This document shows positions 20,282 through 57,575 of a DNA stretch of 64,000 bases, in pieces. The DNA is taken from contig CAZFKS010000007.1 in the NCBI GenBank assembly GCA_964519725.1, positions 1,221 to 65,220 of the forward strand, read 5' to 3'. The notes under the pieces are model-generated. The model made no database searches. It was given only the letters and a program-made list of their open reading frames with translations, and had not been told where the DNA came from. Within the stretch, counting starts at the first letter, position 1; each line of letters begins with the position of its first letter. The translations under genes were made by a program, and so were the position numbers. Source of the stretch: an uncultured Gammaproteobacteria bacterium (GTDB taxonomy: Bacteria; Patescibacteriota; Patescibacteriia; Magasanikbacterales; UBA922).

Positions 20282-21301
20282 ATGAAAACCAAAAAACCAC
20301 GTTGCCAATTTTTTCTCAGCCTCTCCCCTGACCTAGTTACCATTGTAAAAAAAGGAGTAAAAAATTTACCAAATAAAATTTCCAATAAAGTTTTAAGTCT
20401 GGACCAATTAGATCCTCAAACTGAGATTCTAGGTTTATTTACTGACTCAAAAGTTACCAAAGAAGTTCTCAAAAAACTGCCAAATTTAAAAGCGATAATT
20501 ACTTTTTCCACTGGCTTTGATCACATTGATTTTACTGAAGTAAAAAAACGCGGCATTGTGGTTTGTAACGTACCAAGCTATGGTGACTACACCGTCGCTC
20601 AGCACACTTTGACTTTAATTTTGGCGTTGTCAAAAAAATTATTTGAGTCGGTCAAACGTGTCAAAGAAGGTCATTATGATTACCATGGCATGCGCGGATT
20701 TGATTTGCGCGGCAAAACAATTGGCATTATTGGGACCGGAAAAATTGGTAAAGCAGTAGTAAAAATGCTCGCTGGTTTTGAAATGAATATTCAAGCCTAT
20801 GATCCATATCCAGATAAAGAATTTGCCAAAGTCAATCATTTTAAATACGTACCACTGAACACTTTGCTCAAAACTTCAGACATTGTTTCTTTACACGTAC
20901 CACTACTTAAAAATACCAAGCATTTATTGAACAAAACTAATTTAAAAATTATTAAGCCTGGCGCCTTTGTCATCAATACTTCACGCGGTGGTTTAGTTGA
21001 TGGCGAAGCGCTGTACAATGCGCTCCAAAGCGGACGCGTGGCTGGAGCTGGCCTGGATGTTTTGGAGGACGAGGAAATTATGCGCGACCCAGTGTTACTC
21101 TTTAGTGAAAAATGTGAGGAGTGCACAATCCGCACTAGTCTGATCAATAATCTTTTGATCGATCATCCTCGGACAATCGTCACTCCGCACAATGCCTTCA
21201 ATACTACCGAAGCTATTTTGCGGATCATTAATACCTCACTAGAAAACTTGGATAACTTTGTCAAAGGTAAACCGACCAATATTGTTGCACCAAAGCCATA
21301 G
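20282..21301 (+). CDS. D-isomer-specific 2-hydroxyacid dehydrogenase family protein (D-lactate or phosphoglycerate dehydrogenase-like).
   Basis: Rossmann motif GIIGTGKIGKAVVKML and the catalytic region …VSLHVPLLKNTKHLLN…NTSRGGLVD…VAGAGLDVLEDE… are typical of the family. It is inserted between rplK and rplA. Confidence 0.85.
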   Translation: MKTKKPRCQFFLSLSPDLVTIVKKGVKNLPNKISNKVLSLDQLDPQTEILGLFTDSKVTKEVLKKLPNLKAIITFSTGFDHIDFTEVKKRGIVVCNVPSYGDYTVAQHTLTLILALSKKLFESVKRVKEGHYDYHGMRGFDLRGKTIGIIGTGKIGKAVVKMLAGFEMNIQAYDPYPDKEFAKVNHFKYVPLNTLLKTSDIVSLHVPLLKNTKHLLNKTNLKIIKPGAFVINTSRGGLVDGEALYNALQSGRVAGAGLDVLEDEEIMRDPVLLFSEKCEECTIRTSLINNLLIDHPRTIVTPHNAFNTTEAILRIINTSLENLDNFVKGKPTNIVAPKP

Positions 21302-33728: not shown

Positions 33729-35474
33729 TTAAAGCTCGATCTGATTTGAGCGAGTTTTAATTTTTTGAATTAGTTTTTCCACAAACTCAATTTGTTCTAC
33801 AGTTATCGGATCTTCATTACCACGCACGCGCACACTAAGAGGTTCGCCAGCAATTTCACGGTCACCAACTACTACAATGTACGGCACTTTTTGCGCCGCG
33901 GCGTTGCGAACTTTTTTACCTACGGTTTCATTTGCCCCGTCTACTTCCACTCGAATCCCAGCCTCTTGCCACTTGGCCGCCATAGCCTCGGCTCCCGCCC
34001 CATGTTTTTCCCCAGACACTGGGGCGAGTACGACTTGCACTGGGGCGAGCCAAGTTGGAAACGCCCCCGCCGTGTGTTCAATGTACACACTCATAAACCG
34101 TTCCAAAGAACCAAGCAAAGCTTTATGAATCATGACTGGACGTTGTTTGGTACCATCCTCAGCCGTGTATTCCAGTTCAAACCGTTCTGGTTGCACAAAA
34201 TCGAGCTGTTCAGTGGCCAATTGCCACTCGCGCCCAATCGCATCAGTCGCCATAATATCAATTTTCGGACCGTAAAAAGCTGCCTCACCCAAGCCAATGA
34301 AATAATCTAGACCAAGTTCTTTGGCCACATTTTCAATCGTTGTTTGGGCTTTTTCCCAGAGCGCTGGATCACCTAAATATTTATCTGATTCATCACGGAA
34401 ACTTAACCGGGCGCGCCACTTGAGACCAAATACATCGTACATGGTTTTGATCATGGTCATGATCGCCTTGAATTCACTTTCAATTTGATCAATGCGACAA
34501 AAAACATGCGCGTCGTCCTGGGTCGCGGCGCGTACGCGTGACAAACCATGCAGTTCACCAGCCTTTTCATCACGGTATACCACAGTGTTTTCCATATACC
34601 GAATTGGTAGGTCACGGTAAGACCGACCGCGGCTGGCAAAAATTTGGGTGTGGTGCGGACAGTTCATTGGTTTCATCATGAACTCACTATCACTTTCCAC
34701 ACTACTAACATTAAACCGTTCTGGGTATTTATCATAGTGTCCAGAGCGCTTGTACAAATCCACTTTGGTAATGTGCGGAATCGCTACGCGCTGATAACCA
34801 GCCGCTTTTTGCAGTTCCTGACTAAATGCACCCAGTTCATCGCGCATAATGGTGCCACGCGGTGTAAACAGTGGCAGTCCAGGTCCAACTAAATCAGAAA
34901 AAACAAACAAATCTAGTTCTTGACCGAGTTTGCGGTGATCGCGTTTTTTCGCTTCTTCAATTTGAGTTAAATACGCCTCCAATTCTTCTTTGGTCGCAAA
35001 AGCTGTACCGTAAATACGAACCAACATTTTATTTTTAATGTCCCCGCGCCAATACGCACCAGCGACTGACAAAAGTTTAAAATTTTTCAATTCTTTACTT
35101 GGATTTTCCGCGTGTCCACCGCGGCACAGGTCAGTAAATCCACCACAAGTATAAAAAGTCAATTGTGCACCTTCACCAGCAAATTCATTAATTAATTCCT
35201 GCTTATATTCGTTATTTTTAAAATATTCCAGCGCTTCAACCTTAGAAACTTCTTTGCGTTCAAAACTAGTCCAATTTTTCACTAGTTCGCGCATTTTGTT
35301 TTCAATGGCAGTGAGTTCATGATCAGTGATTTTGAGCTCATCAAAATCATAGTAAAAACCAGTCTCAATTGAGGGGCCAATAGTCCGCTTAGCCTCTGGG
35401 TATAGTTGTTCCACGGCTGCGGCCAATAAATGTGCGGCTGAGTGCCGCAATGCGGCTAGTTGTTCTTTTTCCAT
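33729..35474 (-). CDS. thrS: Threonyl-tRNA synthetase lacking the N-terminal TGS (N1) domain.
   Basis: …HRKLGQELDLFVFSDLVGPGLPLFTPRG… (class II motifs) and editing-domain residues (HSAAHLL…DLCRGGH) are present. The protein begins at MEKEQLAALRHSAAHLL, which aligns with the N2 domain of canonical ThrRS. The ORF-track start at 35549 would run through the leader hairpins. Confidence 0.93.
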   Translation of the reverse strand: MEKEQLAALRHSAAHLLAAAVEQLYPEAKRTIGPSIETGFYYDFDELKITDHELTAIENKMRELVKNWTSFERKEVSKVEALEYFKNNEYKQELINEFAGEGAQLTFYTCGGFTDLCRGGHAENPSKELKNFKLLSVAGAYWRGDIKNKMLVRIYGTAFATKEELEAYLTQIEEAKKRDHRKLGQELDLFVFSDLVGPGLPLFTPRGTIMRDELGAFSQELQKAAGYQRVAIPHITKVDLYKRSGHYDKYPERFNVSSVESDSEFMMKPMNCPHHTQIFASRGRSYRDLPIRYMENTVVYRDEKAGELHGLSRVRAATQDDAHVFCRIDQIESEFKAIMTMIKTMYDVFGLKWRARLSFRDESDKYLGDPALWEKAQTTIENVAKELGLDYFIGLGEAAFYGPKIDIMATDAIGREWQLATEQLDFVQPERFELEYTAEDGTKQRPVMIHKALLGSLERFMSVYIEHTAGAFPTWLAPVQVVLAPVSGEKHGAGAEAMAAKWQEAGIRVEVDGANETVGKKVRNAAAQKVPYIVVVGDREIAGEPLSVRVRGNEDPITVEQIEFVEKLIQKIKTRSNQIEL

Positions 35475-35610
35475 ATATAAATAAAAAGCCCCCGACGCCA
35501 TTTTCCCTAAGGATTTGGCGCCGGGGTCATGAGTACATGACGGTTCCACCCGTGCTTTTGCTTAAATAAATTTGTATGCACTCCAGGGTTGGTAGGCCTG
35601 TCAAACGTGC
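35475..35610 (-). promoter_or_regulatory. Candidate T-box leader (Thr specifier) controlling thrS, with mutually exclusive antiterminator and terminator.
   Basis: Read on the minus strand: a specifier hairpin CAGG-CCUACCAAC-CCUGG presents ACC followed by A. The T-box core GGGUGGAACCG is an 11/11 match to GGGUGGNACCG. There is a 7-nt bulge UGGAACC with the A2 hairpin GUCAUG-uacu-CAUGAC. Terminator GACCCCGGCGCC…GGCGUCGGGGGC is followed by UUUUUAUUU and then the thrS AUG. Confidence 0.6.
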
Positions 35611-35615
35611 AGTAA

Positions 35616-35644
35616 CACTTTAACGTACCCGAAACTTTCTGTCA
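35616..35644 (-). promoter_or_regulatory. Sigma70-like promoter for the thrS leader.
   Basis: Minus-strand TTGACA (35644-35639), a 17-nt spacer, then TAAAGT (35621-35616). Confidence 0.45.
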
Positions 35645-52728: not shown

Positions 52729-54029
52729 GAGGGACGGCTGTTACGGTAAATTATATGCCAAACCCTGACCTCTCTGGGAGAACGATTTGTGTAGTTGGCA
52801 CTAGTACTCCCAATAAACAATTTGTCTTTGAAACGCTTAAAAAACTAGATCTGACTGTTATCGTTATTGAAAAAGAAAAAAATTGGGCTACCCCATTTGT
52901 GGATCACTGGATTATTGCTGACACCAGCGACCACCTTAAAACAATCAAGGCTTTTGCGGCGTTTACAAAGGAACACCCCCGCACTAAAATTAACGGAATT
53001 GTAAATTTCTGGGAAGAGGAAGTTGTCCTAACTTCTAAATTAATTGAAAAATTTGGCTTTCCTGGTACCCCCTACCCAATTGTGGAACATATCCGGAATA
53101 AACTGGCTTTCCGCAAATTTTGCAGTGAAAACAATTTACCTGTGCCCAAACACCATCGCATTCGATCCACAAAAGACCTAGACTTGGTCAAAGAAAACTT
53201 TACTTTTCCCGTGGTAATTAAACCCGCTTTTGGCGCAGGTAGTGCCTATGTCACCAAGGTTAGCCGACGGGCCAGTTTAAAGCCTACCATTGACCGGATT
53301 CGCAAAAAAATTAGCCCTGAAGTAGAAAGTACTCTTAGCGAGGGATTAGATATTTTTGTTGAGGAATTTATTGATGGGGCTGAGGTTGATATTGATATGC
53401 TAGTACAGAATGGTAAGGTCAAATTCTGTTCTGTGTCAGATAACTATGATAAAAAATTTGGTAATTCCTTTTTGGACAAAGGTCAGGCTTTACCATCTAA
53501 ACTTTCCAAAAGACGCCAAGATGTTTTGGCCACTATGGCTGAAGTCACTGTAGAAAAATTAGGAATTACTGACGCCTGCGTCCATTACGAAGCTAAAATT
53601 GGTAAAAAAGGACCAATTCCACTGGAAATTAATTTACGACTAGGTGGCGGTTGTGTGCACCGATCACTCATGCTGGCCTGGGGTGTTGATTTTGTTGAGT
53701 ACAGCACACGGATTGCACTGGGTGAATATTTTTCTCCAATTCCTAAACCCAAAAAACCATTACGTGGTTCTGTGTCACTCAACTTACAACCACCCTATTC
53801 TGGAACAGTTACTAATATTAAGATTGACCCAATGTTCTATAAAAAATCTTATTTTGAAGAATTGCACTTAGCCAAAAAAGTGGGCGACTCGATCTCTTGC
53901 CCACCTCATGGTTTTGAATGTCTAGGTTGGTTTACAGTAAGTGGTTCAGATTTAAAACAAGCTGAACATAACGCCCGAGAAGCACGTAAATTAATTACTT
54001 ACGAAATAAAACGTAGTGGAAATAATTAA
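52719..54029 (+). CDS. ATP-grasp fold ligase (L-amino-acid-ligase or carboxylate-amine ligase-like).
   Basis: …FPVVIKPAFGAGSAYVTKV…, …FVEEFIDGAEVDIDMLVQNG…, and …EINLRLGGG… are typical ATP-grasp motifs. The ORF-track start is a TTG. The ATG at 52755 (MPNPDLSGRTICVVGTS…) is an alternative. The start is uncertain. Confidence 0.72.
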   Translation: MTIGGTAVTVNYMPNPDLSGRTICVVGTSTPNKQFVFETLKKLDLTVIVIEKEKNWATPFVDHWIIADTSDHLKTIKAFAAFTKEHPRTKINGIVNFWEEEVVLTSKLIEKFGFPGTPYPIVEHIRNKLAFRKFCSENNLPVPKHHRIRSTKDLDLVKENFTFPVVIKPAFGAGSAYVTKVSRRASLKPTIDRIRKKISPEVESTLSEGLDIFVEEFIDGAEVDIDMLVQNGKVKFCSVSDNYDKKFGNSFLDKGQALPSKLSKRRQDVLATMAEVTVEKLGITDACVHYEAKIGKKGPIPLEINLRLGGGCVHRSLMLAWGVDFVEYSTRIALGEYFSPIPKPKKPLRGSVSLNLQPPYSGTVTNIKIDPMFYKKSYFEELHLAKKVGDSISCPPHGFECLGWFTVSGSDLKQAEHNAREARKLITYEIKRSGNN

Positions 54030-56926
54030 ACTTTGTGAATTGCTACCGTTACAGTAATATCAGAAACTTCTTTGGTTTCGCCGCTAACTCCAACCTCTAA
54101 ATTATTAGCCAAAACCGCTGTTAAAATTTCTTCCTTAAATTCAGTCAGGGCGTGATTAAGTTTTTCACTTTCAGTAGTAAATTCAATTTTGATTCGATCT
54201 TGAATAGTTAGGCCAGCATCTTTGCGCATTTGATTGATAGTCCGAATAAATTCTCGAGCCAGACCTTCTTTTTCTAAGACTTCGGTAATTTCCGTGTTAA
54301 GTGAAACAGTTAGCGCGCCATCAGTTTTAACCACGGCGTAGCGATTGTCACCAACACTGACTTTTTTGACATTCAATTCATCAGCTATGATCAAGGTCAT
54401 TTCTTCGGATAAAACCGTACCCCTCACATCAAATTCACCCAGAACCTGACGAACTTTTACTCCAGCTTCAGAGCGGAGTGAGAGACCCATTTCCACAATC
54501 TTACGCACGGTTTGCATTTGTTCTAGAACCGATTCATTAACTGATTTTTTATTTACTTCTGGCCACATCTCCAGGTGCACACTTTTTTTACTACCACTCA
54601 CTTCTTGCCACACTTTTTCGGCCACAAACGGCGTAAATGGTGCCATAACTTTACTGAGGGTTGCGAGTACCTCACGGAGCGTTGTGAGTGCAGCCAGTTT
54701 ATCTTTTTCATCACTACCTTTAAAACGATCGCGTGACCGGCGCACGTACCAAGTCGACAATTCATCAATAAATTCCGCGACTGGACGTGAGGCTTCAGAC
54801 AAATTATACGCTTCCATTTCGCGCGTTACATCAGCAATTAAATTCTGTAGTTTAGCAAGAATCCACTCATCAAGAATATTTGTCGATTTTACTTCAGTCA
54901 CTTTTTCAGTCGCAAATAATTTGTAGAATTCTACAACGTTCCAGAGTGTATTCACTACTTTTCCGTACGCTTCGCGTACCCCATCTTCGCTAAAGTTTAA
55001 ACTTTCGGCATGCATGACTGGTGAGGTAATTAAATAATACCGCAGTGCATCAGCCCCGTATTTTTCTAGGAGCACATTCGGATCTGGATAATTTTGCAAT
55101 TTTTTACTCATCTTTTTTCCATCTTCAGCGAGTACAATTCCGTTCACAATTACATTTTTGAAAGCTGGTTTGGCAAAAATTGAAGTGGATAGAACATGTA
55201 AGTAATAGAACCAGGCGCGAGTTTGATCTTGCCCCTCAGCAATAAATTCCGCTGGGAAGCTATCCTCAAATTTCTTCTTGTTTTCAAATGGATAATGCAT
55301 TTGCGCGTATGGCATTGAGCCCGAATCAAACCAAGTATCGAGCACATCAGGTACGCGTTTCATAGTTCCACCGCACTTACATGGCACAGTTACCAAATCA
55401 ACCACATGTTTATGTAGGTCTTCAATCTTTTGTCCACTCGCCTCTTCTAAATCTGCAGCAGAGCCAAATACGCGCATTTCCGCACACTTTTCACACTTCC
55501 AAATTGGCATCACACTGGCCCAAAAACGCTGACGAGAAATTGACCAATCGCGCGCACCAGCCAGCCATTGGCCAAATCGGCCTTCTTTAATATGGTCTGG
55601 CGACCAATTGATTTTTTCCGCTTGTTTCAATGCTTCGTCTTTGACCGCTGTCACTTTTACAAACCAAGATGAAGTTGCGTAATTCAAAAGTGGAGTATCA
55701 CAGCGCCAGCAGTGTGGGTACGAGTGGGTGAGATTTTCTTTGGCAAAGAAGTAATTATTTTCTTGTAAATATTTAAGTACAGCAATGTCAGCACCAAGAC
55801 GAACTTTATCATCATCAGATTTTGGTTTGACTTCCAAGCCAGCAAACACCAAAACTTCTGGTTTAAATCGACCATCCATGCCAACATGTTGCACAAATGG
55901 AAGTCCAACTTTTTTACCCAGTTCCCAGTCATCAGCCCCAAAGGCCGGTGCCTCGTGCGCAACCCCCGTACCACTGTCATCAGTCACAAAATCAGCAGCG
56001 TAAATTTTCCAACCATTTTCCCGATTGTTCAATTTTTCATCTTTTGCGTAATAGTCAAAAATTGGTTCGTACGAAAGACCAACTAAATCTTCACCAGCCA
56101 TTTCTTTTTCTACTGAAAATTCTTTATTGGCAAAAACTTTTTCCACCAAAGCTTTGGCAACAATAAAATAGTTTTCTTCAGATTTTACCAAAGCATAATT
56201 TACTTTTGGACCAACTGCGAGCGCGACATTTCCTGGCAATGTCCAAGGAGTAGTAGTCCAGGCTACAACGTACACATTTTCCACTCCAAATTTTTCCGCA
56301 GCATTTTTCAACTTAAATTTTACGTACACCGAAATATCTTTGACATCTTTATAGCCTTCGCTCACTTCTTGTTGTGAAAGCGTCGTTTCACAGCGCGGGC
56401 AAATGTGCATGGCGCGATAGTCCTGATAAATCAAACCCTTGTCCCACAATTGCTTGAACACCCACCACACTGATTCCATGTAATCACGACTCATGGTTAC
56501 GTACGCATGTTCCATATCAACCCAGCGACCGAGCCGGCGCACAGTTTTTTTCCAATCTTCTACATATCCCAACACTTTGCTGCGGCAACGTTCGTTAAAT
56601 TCGGCCACCCCCATGGCTTCAATTTCTTTTTTAGTTTTTGTACCCAATTCTTTTTCAACAATGTTTTCAATTGGGAGTCCATGACAATCCCAACCCCAGA
56701 CCCGTTCAACTTTAAATCCGCGCATAGTGAAGTAGCGCGGCACAGCGTCTTTCATGAGTGAAGCCACAATGTGACCATAGTGTGGGAGACCAGTCGCAAA
56801 CGGCGGACCATCGTAAAATACATATGGCTTATTATCTGGCCGCTCATTTACTGACCGCTCAAAAACCTGATTGGCTTCCCAATATTTTAAAACTTCTTCT
56901 TCGTGCTGGCTGGCTGAATATGGCAT
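54026..56926 (-). CDS. ileS: Isoleucyl-tRNA synthetase (type 2 or eukaryote-like form).
   Basis: …YDGPPFATGLPHYGHIV… (HIGH region) and …KKMSKKLQNYPDP… (KMSKS). 966 aa. Confidence 0.97.
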   Translation of the reverse strand: MPYSASQHEEEVLKYWEANQVFERSVNERPDNKPYVFYDGPPFATGLPHYGHIVASLMKDAVPRYFTMRGFKVERVWGWDCHGLPIENIVEKELGTKTKKEIEAMGVAEFNERCRSKVLGYVEDWKKTVRRLGRWVDMEHAYVTMSRDYMESVWWVFKQLWDKGLIYQDYRAMHICPRCETTLSQQEVSEGYKDVKDISVYVKFKLKNAAEKFGVENVYVVAWTTTPWTLPGNVALAVGPKVNYALVKSEENYFIVAKALVEKVFANKEFSVEKEMAGEDLVGLSYEPIFDYYAKDEKLNNRENGWKIYAADFVTDDSGTGVAHEAPAFGADDWELGKKVGLPFVQHVGMDGRFKPEVLVFAGLEVKPKSDDDKVRLGADIAVLKYLQENNYFFAKENLTHSYPHCWRCDTPLLNYATSSWFVKVTAVKDEALKQAEKINWSPDHIKEGRFGQWLAGARDWSISRQRFWASVMPIWKCEKCAEMRVFGSAADLEEASGQKIEDLHKHVVDLVTVPCKCGGTMKRVPDVLDTWFDSGSMPYAQMHYPFENKKKFEDSFPAEFIAEGQDQTRAWFYYLHVLSTSIFAKPAFKNVIVNGIVLAEDGKKMSKKLQNYPDPNVLLEKYGADALRYYLITSPVMHAESLNFSEDGVREAYGKVVNTLWNVVEFYKLFATEKVTEVKSTNILDEWILAKLQNLIADVTREMEAYNLSEASRPVAEFIDELSTWYVRRSRDRFKGSDEKDKLAALTTLREVLATLSKVMAPFTPFVAEKVWQEVSGSKKSVHLEMWPEVNKKSVNESVLEQMQTVRKIVEMGLSLRSEAGVKVRQVLGEFDVRGTVLSEEMTLIIADELNVKKVSVGDNRYAVVKTDGALTVSLNTEITEVLEKEGLAREFIRTINQMRKDAGLTIQDRIKIEFTTESEKLNHALTEFKEEILTAVLANNLEVGVSGETKEVSDITVTVAIHKV

Positions 56927-57129
56927 AAAAAATAAAAACCACTCTTAGGTGTTGAGATCCCATCGCGTTTGCGAGGGAGGTACCATCTCAACTTTGCCAA
57001 GTGGCCTTAATTACAGCGTTACGGGCTTATCCGAGAGGGTCTACTTCCCTGGCTAGGGAATCTTCCTCTAGCGCTCCCCGGTCGAACCGGGGATTCCTGC
57101 TGATGACAGGTCTGGCGCTTTTATATGTT
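56927..57129 (-). promoter_or_regulatory. Candidate T-box leader (Ile specifier) upstream of ileS.
   Basis: Read on the minus strand: a specifier hairpin CCUG-UCAUCAG-CAGG presents AUC followed by A (plus strand 57096-57110). A GC hairpin CCCCGG-UUCGA-CCGGGG and an enclosing short helix form a 3-way junction. The antiterminator is helix A1 GUUGAGA/UCUCAAC, the 7-nt bulge UGGUACC (plus strand 56979-56985, with N'=U matching the A73 discriminator), and helix A2 CCCUCGC-aaac-GCGAuGGG. I found no clean downstream terminator, so regulation may be translational (a CCUCC anti-SD-like tract in A2). Confidence 0.5.
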
Positions 57130-57135
57130 AGTTCT

Positions 57136-57164
57136 AATGTAATTAAATTTAAAAAAAATGTCAA
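57136..57164 (-). promoter_or_regulatory. Consensus-like sigma70 promoter for the ileS leader.
   Basis: Minus-strand TTGACA (57164-57159), a 17-nt spacer, then TACATT (57141-57136). Confidence 0.45.
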
Positions 57165-57231: not shown

Positions 57232-57262
57232 TTAAAAAACTCCTTCCCAGGAGTTTTTTGTC
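57232..57262 (-). terminator. Bidirectional intrinsic terminator. Most plausibly it ends the minus-strand GC-rich RNA upstream of the ileS promoter.
   Basis: AAAAAACTCCTTCCCAGGAGTTTTTTGT. A 6-bp stem, 4-nt loop, and flanking A and T runs. Confidence 0.55.
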
Positions 57263-57269
57263 TAATTCC

Positions 57270-57575
57270 ATATAAATAAAAAAGGTTTGCCGACTGGAGG
57301 GAGTCGGCTTAAGGCAGGCGCTTCAAAATACGGGTCGCGAACAGACCCGTTGCACAGAAGCGACAGTCACAGGTGGGAGTTTTGTGACGAAAAAGCGGTT
57401 GCGTTTCAGTCACCACCGCGGCCAGTGGGTCTGGAGACTCACCAGCTGCGTGCAGAATGTCGTCCACGAAAAAGAATCGAACCGGGTGACGGACCGTGTC
57501 TGGAAGTTCCAGATCATAGAGCAAAAGACCAGCCAGACGGTGGACTTGCTCATTGTTATTTGTCTTCACTTTCCC
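57270..57575 (-). ncRNA. Unclassified structured RNA candidate: a GC-rich, hairpin-dense noncoding island of roughly 300 nt. Strand is inferred as minus from terminator placement.
   Basis: Local GC is about 55% against about 40% in the flanks. At least 8 stable hairpins, for example GCCGACU-ggaggg-AGUCGGC, ACGGGU-cgcgaacag-ACCCGU, GCGGU…ACCGC, UCUGG-aaguu-CCAGA and UCUUCA…UGAAGA. The ORFs listed here (57287..57604 on the plus strand, 57309..57569 on the minus strand) have no protein-like composition. By eye I could not match RNase P, tmRNA or SRP consensus motifs. Confidence 0.35.

Follow-up and report, generated by a model that had tools for sequence, protein, structure and literature searches.

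The window analysed here is a stretch of 64,000 nucleotides (contig CAZFKS010000007.1, assembly GCA_964519725.1), and the element in question is the 5' leader of ileS, the gene for isoleucyl-tRNA synthetase (IleRS), which is encoded on the minus strand. The leader occupies about 200 nt between a promoter and the ileS ATG at 56926, which on the minus strand directly adjoins the U-tract of the leader. A preliminary description had read it as a T-box-type leader whose specifier is AUC and whose bulge contains UGGU; the elements of such a leader are indeed present between 56927 and 57164 (minus strand) and show family-wide covariation, and we regard it as very probably an Ile-specific T-box riboswitch which controls ileS by premature transcription termination. 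The features are given below in the direction of transcription.

57136..57164 (-), sigma-70-type promoter TTGACA-N17-TACATT, 10/12 matches
57070..57119 (-), Stem I as a three-way junction, with base helix AGCGC/GCGCU (57119-57115 / 57074-57070)
57096..57110 (-), specifier hairpin CCUG-UCAUCAG-CAGG, with the Ile codon AUC at 57104-57102 followed by the purine A at 57101
57076..57092 (-), extra hairpin CCCCGG-UUCGA-CCGGGG
57034..57069 (-), Stem II: lower helix AGAGG/CCUCU, internal loop AAGA (57064-57061) / GUAGA (57044-57040) and upper hairpin
57015..57033 (-), Stem IIA/B pseudoknot: IIA CGG/CCG, loop AGC pairing with the downstream GCU, F-box-like CCCGUAA
56993..57008 (-), RAG segment and Stem III: AAG 57008-57006, GCC-ACUU-GGC 57005-56996, AAA 56995-56993
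56951..56992 (-), discriminator core: helix A1 GUUGAGA/UCUCAAC, bulge UGGUACC 56985-56979, helix A2 UCCCUCGC-AAAC-GCGAUGGGA
56927..56944 (-), terminator: 3' strand GAGUGGUUU 56944-56936, running into the U-tract UUUUUAUUUUUU 56938-56927
54026..56926 (-), ileS open reading frame (ORF) of 966 amino acids, the regulated gene; TIGR00392, E 7e-280

The promoter, the AUC and following A in a 7-nt loop (57104-57101), the GC-rich extra hairpin, and A1, the 7-nt bulge and A2 had all been described previously and were found as described, while the helix enclosing the two hairpins was confirmed as AGCGC/GCGCU.

A leader family in relatives of the window

For comparison, 80 ileS loci were retrieved with the IleRS protein from species-representative genomes, with identities from 84% down to 53%, and nearly all are labelled as Patescibacteria, Parcubacteria, or Falkow-, Magasanik- or Moranbacteria. 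The sequence TGGTACC is found 50-170 nt 5' of ileS in 26/80 of these relatives, and a covariance model built on the leader family (R1) finds 34 leaders, i.e. that of the window and those of 33 of the 80 loci, with scores of 40-131 bits; 12 of these leaders were outside its training set. The window leader itself scores 122.5 bits (56951-57122) and is the sole match within the window. The leaders share a common plan, which starts with a promoter, AAAGCG..., a short hairpin with the loop NNAUCAN, GAAGAAA...AGUAGA, CCGGGUAAGCCCGUAA and AAUUAAG, and continues with an optional hairpin, A1-UGGUACC-A2, and a hairpin with a U-run. In eight loci (L018, L039, L040, L045, L060, L061, L063 and L070) the leader is located 5' of small genes preceding ileS, these being one or two unrelated ORFs of 121-245 amino acids, and judging from this gene order it would control a small operon including ileS. 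Many of the closest IleRS relatives (e.g. L001-L004, L006 and L008) are third-party metagenome-assembled genome records with 'uncultured Gammaproteobacteria' or 'Bdellovibrionales' in the title; by both ileS gene and leader they group with Patescibacteria records, and they are thus probably mislabelled. Judging from the labels of the retrieved loci, the window itself would come from a bacterium of the candidate phyla radiation (CPR) type.

The preliminary description had looked to covariation in relatives as a check, and this bears the structure out. The structure derived from the window was applied to a structure-blind MAFFT alignment of 22 leaders (alignment A1), in which 84.3% of the cells are paired, as opposed to 32-46% after sliding the 3' partners by 1-3 columns, and 30/37 pairs are compensatory with changes on both sides, a value reached by 0/500 shuffles and counted, like all covariation given here, per sequence and not per evolutionary event. 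In the alignment of all 34 sequences, which leans towards the structure because it was fitted to R1, 86.6% of the cells are paired and 31/34 pairs are compensatory; taken over both alignments, the slid controls gave 28-46% paired cells versus 84-87% observed. RNAalifold independently predicted the specifier hairpin, Stem II in its two parts, IIA, and A1 and A2 together with a 7-nt bulge, with 22/25 pairs compensatory, and the fold of the window leader has an energy of -74.7 kcal/mol (z = -3.75 versus shuffled sequence).

At the 5' end of the leader, TTGAC(A) and TAnnAT are equally spaced in the aligned relatives of the window promoter, and from the position of this promoter transcription would start at approximately 57129. 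The base helix of Stem I is paired at 100% in the 22 sequences and at 98.5% in the 34 sequences, with compensatory changes, and encloses both the specifier hairpin and the extra hairpin. The specifier stem covaries in both alignments and in the RNAalifold prediction, while the AUC is invariant in the 22-sequence alignment and was read by eye in all 34 leaders. Stem I ends in this specifier loop, and has no interdigitated double T-loop motif (IDTM) or elbow-binding distal part. Approximately 15/34 members have a hairpin at the position of the extra hairpin, following the specifier hairpin and preceding the base helix 3' strand, with sequences and loops that are unrelated among them (UUCGA, CUUG, CUUU, GAUUA and others). 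Members without it have a recognisable kink-turn (K-turn) and a shorter base helix, the K-turn motifs being GAUGA/GGAGC or UUUGA/GA(U)GC, as compared to AGA / GAAU plus a third helix in the window. The extra hairpin is thus a lineage-variable insertion which turns Stem I into a three-way junction, and this insertion may take over the bending role of the K-turn.

Stem II has an S-turn-type internal loop, its GAAGAAA...AGUAGA being near-invariant in the 22-sequence alignment, and its lower helix is 99% paired with 5/5 pairs compensatory. In the Stem IIA/B pseudoknot IIA is invariant, and the IIB pairs covary (AGC/GCU, GGG/CCC, CGGAA/UUCCG and CGGA/UCCG). The purine-flanked Stem III reads AAG-GCCACUUGGC-AAA in the window, with A115, A116 and G117 at least 90% conserved in the 22-sequence alignment, and fits the 5'-RRRxG-Stem III-AA-3' or RAG motif of T-boxes, the Stem III/RAG purines being essential for binding of the tRNA 3' end (PMC7583486 section 5.2, PMC11297988). 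Several relatives (L003, L004, L017, L019, L038 and L052) have no Stem III hairpin, and have instead a 6-9 nt A/U-rich linker between AAUUAAG and A1; this contrasts with the glyQS T-boxes, where Stem III is reported to be indispensable (PMC7583486). The discriminator bulge UGGUACC is invariant in the 22-sequence alignment, and both A1 and A2 covary.

The terminator and its proposed competition with Stem III

The preliminary description had reported no obvious intrinsic terminator, which is not supported by our analysis, as the leader ends in UUUUUAUUUUUU (56938-56927) directly 3' of a helix of 9-10 bp. Its two strands are GGCCACUU, located immediately 5' of A1, and AAGAGUGGUU; the complete A1/A2 hairpin lies between them, and the U-tract and the AUG follow. 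Within this helix, the terminator strand GAGUGGUUU pairs with AGGCCACUU (57007-56999), which is the RAG/Stem III strand. The long-range helix is present in >98% of the predicted ensemble, with pair probabilities of 0.99, and is the only helix which abuts the U-tract of the window; in window folding the terminator state has -29.9 kcal/mol versus -23.4 kcal/mol for the state in which Stem III forms and leaves the 3' strand unpaired. In 34/34 members of the family there is a hairpin with a run of five or more U's behind it, and while the gap between U-run and AUG varies between 0 and 99 nt, the U-run keeps its place next to the hairpin.

The terminators were classified by thermodynamic folding of the segments from discriminator to U-run of each leader, with the U-tract of six relatives assigned by hand and the class ambiguous in L030 and L061. 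Local terminators are found in 21/34 leaders, and have a 5' strand overlapping the 3' strand of A1, which is the classical design; this overlap is extensive in Moranbacteria-type leaders and just 2-3 nt in others. Enclosing terminators, where the strand preceding the U-run pairs with the RAG/Stem III segment or the linker 5' of A1, are found in 12/34 (the window, L001, L005, L006, L018, L031, L035, L041, L045, L049, L071 and L076). The enclosing complementarity is achieved by at least five sequence solutions (CCAC/GUGG, CCAAU/AUUGG, CACC/GGUG, GCUAC/GUAGC and GUGAUA/UAUCAC), and cognate pairs of strands average -10.8 kcal/mol versus -6.35 kcal/mol for non-cognate pairs.

The conservation and covariation of the domains, the presence of a terminator and the long-range complementarity are shown by the analysis, and from these we infer that the leader binds tRNA, senses its charge, and sets a Stem III latch in competition with the terminator. 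In this mechanism the GAU anticodon of tRNA-Ile would pair with the AUC, which an ultrashort Stem I displays anticodon-like in its 7-nt apical loop, and the S-turn of Stem II would support this AUC/GAU pairing. The 3'-ACCA of uncharged tRNA would pair with UGGU in the A1/A2 bulge, and the RAG/Stem III purines would latch onto the ACCA/UGGU duplex. As the 5' strand of the window terminator, AGGCCACUU, is the RAG/Stem III segment (A116-G117 plus the 5' strand of Stem III) rather than the antiterminator 3' half, latching would keep AGGCCACUU from GAGUGGUUU and polymerase would read into ileS. With charged tRNA, or with no tRNA, the long-range helix would close over the intact A1/A2, giving a long hairpin before UUUUUAUUUUUU and termination at 56938-56927. 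The usual T-box logic, with uncharged tRNA as the ON signal, would thus be kept, with the competition moved from A1/A2 to the Stem III latch.

Several observations weigh against such a riboswitch. No tRNA-Ile was found by ARAGORN in the window or in 60 loci, and for this organism the discriminator A73 and the anticodon GAU are presumed from tRNA-Ile in general. The A1 and A2 helices persist in the terminator fold of the window and the terminator 5' strand is located upstream of A1; A1/A2 are thus compatible with the terminator, and the classical strand-exchange logic is inapplicable. Stem III has only 3 bp in the window, with -4.0 kcal/mol on its own, and the A2 pair adjoining the bulge is U-A and not the conserved G.U steric wall. 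The distal part of Stem I (the IDTM/elbow platform), which is absent here, is regarded as generally required by transcriptional T-boxes, where tRNA needs fast capture (PMC7583486 section 6.2). Finally, RF00230, the Rfam model for T-boxes, has no match in the window at its gathering score, nor at E <= 1 over all 64 kb, and for the leader region there is no match at E <= 10 on either 501 nt or 196 nt.

One alternative is that switching follows the canonical scheme, with tRNA stabilising A1/A2 against a terminator pairing that was not recognised, and with the long-range helix being a clamp or an incidental extension. This would agree with the 21 relatives using local terminators that overlap the A1 3' strand, L002 (70% IleRS identity) being one of these, but when the window sub-segment was folded without the upstream strand, the strand preceding the U-tract had no local partner beyond 3 bp and -1.7 kcal/mol. 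The retention of the long-range complementarity in 12 members via different sequences also argues against it, as does the position of the long-range helix, which alone abuts the U-tract, and we consider this alternative unlikely.

A translational T-box, in which uncharged tRNA-Ile frees a sequestered Shine-Dalgarno (SD) sequence as in Actinobacteria and there is no transcription termination, was the interpretation favoured in the preliminary description and is in our view quite improbable. The apical-loop specifier, Stem II and IIA/B do represent the architecture that is known to date from translational ileS T-boxes in Actinobacteria (PMC7583486, PMC12990946, PMC7778990), the AUG lies immediately 3' of the switching helix, and AAGAGUGG in the terminator 3' strand is faintly SD-like. 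However, the terminator is present throughout the family with its U-run tied to the hairpin and not to the AUG, and SD-like AAGGA motifs, which are present in L031, L068, L049 and L018, are located 3' of the terminator U-run and are unpaired. The CCUCC tract that had been proposed as anti-SD consists only of ACC from the bulge and the first bases of A2 on its 5' strand. Furthermore, the window hardly uses SD sequences: when the 25 nt before the start of ORFs of at least 150 amino acids were scanned, 42/49, ileS included, were without an SD-like motif, and the few matches were mostly at implausible spacing. Hence there is nothing to sequester before ileS.

The extremely improbable remaining alternative, a tRNA-like operator whose three-way junction is bound by the IleRS protein in autoregulation as at the E. 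coli thrS operator, could draw on the acceptor-like helix enclosing two hairpins in the window, one with a 7-nt loop and the other with a UUCGA loop, but the 7-nt loop holds the codon AUC and not the anticodon GAU and is therefore no tRNA mimic, the second hairpin is missing from roughly half the family members and has a loop without conservation, ARAGORN called no tRNA-like gene for the junction in the window or the 60 loci, and there would be no explanation for the conservation of Stem II, IIA/B and the UGGUACC bulge. The tRNA mimicry suggested in the preliminary description by the term 'tRNA-like' was rejected on the first three of these grounds.

Relation to known T-box classes

The preliminary description had proposed a search with RF00230 as a check on the T-box interpretation, and by the negative outcome for the window, taken by itself, that interpretation would have fallen. 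At the gathering score there is no match in 18 relatives either. The leader of L046, which is a member of the R1 family, does align to the full RF00230 model with 61.2 bits (E 2.4e-13; gathering score 93). Leader and model agree in the K-turn GCGAUGA/GGAGC, in Stem II, in CGG...CCGUAA (IIA/B including the F-box), in Stem III and in AAGGUGGUACCACG, whereas 76 distal Stem I positions of the model are reduced to 6. Since L046 aligns in this way, with the distal Stem I collapsed, the family is a T-box lineage in which the distal Stem I was lost and the specifier is in the apical loop. When compared with the 14-nt T-box sequence AGGGUGGNACCGCG, the Moranbacteria-type relatives match at 12/14 positions with AAGGUGGUACCACG, and the window at 9/14 with GAGAUGGUACCUCC, including 7/7 in the bulge part. 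The window leader is missed by RF00230 because it has diverged further, with a three-way junction for the K-turn, this 9/14 match, and U-A for G.U; its membership of the T-boxes therefore rests on the covariation of the family together with the sub-threshold match of L046. Weak matches to other Rfam models (Phe_leader, sau-53 and P15) were discarded as look-alikes of terminators or hairpins.

With regard to the known properties of T-boxes, the window leader has the cognate codon followed by a purine, a UGGNACC bulge between A1 and A2, and a purine-flanked Stem III, and like the class II T-boxes with ultrashort Stem I it has its specifier in the apical loop together with the S-turn of Stem II and the IIA/B pseudoknot. 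Absent from it are five class-defining properties, i.e. an RF00230 score, the IDTM, the G.U wall, the classical overlap of terminator and antiterminator, and SD sequestration. The G.U wobble at the base of A2 is the steric sensor of the aminoacyl group in T-boxes (PMC7583486), and across our family (34-sequence alignment, columns 406/437) the bulge-adjacent pair is AU in 13, GC in 10, UA in 6 and GU in 2.

To date, descriptions of ultrashort Stem I elements have concerned translational ileS T-boxes in Actinobacteria (PMC7583486 sections 3 and 6.2; PMC12990946), such as those of M. smegmatis, M. tuberculosis (PDB 6UFG) and N. farcinica (PDB 6UFM), for which we follow Sherwood et al. 2015 as cited in PMC7583486 and PMC7778990. 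Compared by description, these share with the window leader the ileS target, a short Stem I with AUC plus purine in its apical loop, the lack of an elbow-binding platform, the Stem II S-turn, IIA/B with three loop-linker pairs, the RAG purines, Stem III, and the UGGU bulge between A1 and A2. They differ in being translational with SD sequestration, whereas the window has an intrinsic terminator in an SD-poor genome, and the window leader also differs in Stem I's base, a three-way junction rather than a plain K-turn, in the use of the RAG/Stem III segment as terminator 5' strand, and in the phylum, Patescibacteria or CPR.

Similarly, the window leader can be set beside the canonical transcriptional T-boxes (RF00230; B. 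subtilis tyrS and glyQS), with which it would share the tRNA-dependent choice between read-through and terminator. It has the same 7-nt UGGNACC bulge, and the K-turn, Stem II (as seen for L046), IIA/B and Stem III of its relatives align to RF00230. In contrast to canonical T-boxes it lacks a long Stem I, an AG bulge, a distal loop and the IDTM, its specifier is in a terminal and not an internal loop, it keeps less of the T-box sequence (GAGAUGGUACCUCC versus AGGGUGGNACCGCG), the A2 base pair is U-A in place of G.U, its terminator makes no use of the antiterminator 3' half, and the RF00230 score is below all thresholds tried. The E. coli thrS operator is a tRNA mimic which binds the synthetase protein and displays an anticodon; here the likeness is limited to a structured 5' leader of a synthetase gene and a hairpin with an anticodon-loop-like 7-nt loop, as the window leader displays a codon, has a bulge predicted to bind the tRNA 3' end, and belongs to a family in which the tRNA-like shape is not conserved.

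What is new in the window leader is that an ultrashort Stem I occurs together with an intrinsic terminator, and that this terminator is of non-canonical design, with the mechanism as proposed above. It is possible, although we put this forward only tentatively, that these leaders represent a distinct Patescibacteria T-box design, in which decoding by an apical loop without IDTM would be co-transcriptional, the decision would be taken by the RAG/Stem III latch competition in place of strand exchange in the antiterminator, the K-turn would be replaced by a three-way junction, and the G.U wall would be dispensable.

The thrS leader, the surroundings of ileS and implications

Other features of the window on the minus strand are as follows.

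57308-57289 and 57259-57234 (-), two consecutive terminator-like hairpins with U-runs, just 5' of the ileS promoter
35478-35622 (-), T-box-like leader 5' of thrS, with promoter TTGACA-N17-TAAAGT
33729-35474 (-), thrS; TIGR00418, E 1e-201

From their position, the two hairpins at 57234-57308 appear to end the upstream transcription unit and to insulate the leader from its transcription. The IleRS of the window, which we take to be a eukaryote-like type 2 enzyme, is presumably of the same enzyme type as that of Actinobacteria, the other group with apical-loop ileS T-boxes. The ileS product scores 730-747 bits against the models for the mupirocin-resistance proteins MupA and MupB, which is below their cut-offs. 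In several genes of the window (e.g. those with starts at 20282 (+), 57743 (+) and 63339 (-)) a TATAAT-like box ends approximately 9-17 nt before the ATG, which suggests that these have leaderless or very short-leader mRNAs.

The preliminary description had counted two T-boxes in the 64-kb window, and the leader of thrS at approximately 35478-35622 also looks like one. It contains a K-turn-like GCACGUUUGA/GGAGUGC, the apical loop CCUACCAAC with the Thr codon ACC followed by A, UGGAACC at 35548-35542, and a classical terminator CCCCGGCGCC/GGCGUCGGGGG plus UUUUUAUUU, but it is more minimal than the ileS leader, with no Stem II or IIA/B. TGGAACC was found 5' of thrS in 24/76 metagenomic relatives, with ACC in a short hairpin loop in most of those read, while RF00230 gave merely 10.7 bits (E 2) on the thrS leader.

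A literature search gave no report of T-boxes in CPR/Patescibacteria, which is no proof that none has been published. There is an annotation blind spot for such leaders, as they are missed by RF00230 and the class II model of TBDB was searched only in Actinobacteria (PMC7778990). The occurrence of an ultrashort decoding module and an intrinsic terminator in one family challenges the rule that transcriptional T-boxes require an elbow platform, and a third of the family members have a terminator that makes use of the Stem III latch. Natural variants for the roles of Stem III, the K-turn and the G.U wall are also available in this family, with members with or without Stem III, with a K-turn or a three-way junction, and with or without G.U. 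With regard to the organisms themselves, these reduced and largely amino-acid-auxotrophic Patescibacteria would monitor tRNA charging directly, both at ileS and apparently at thrS.

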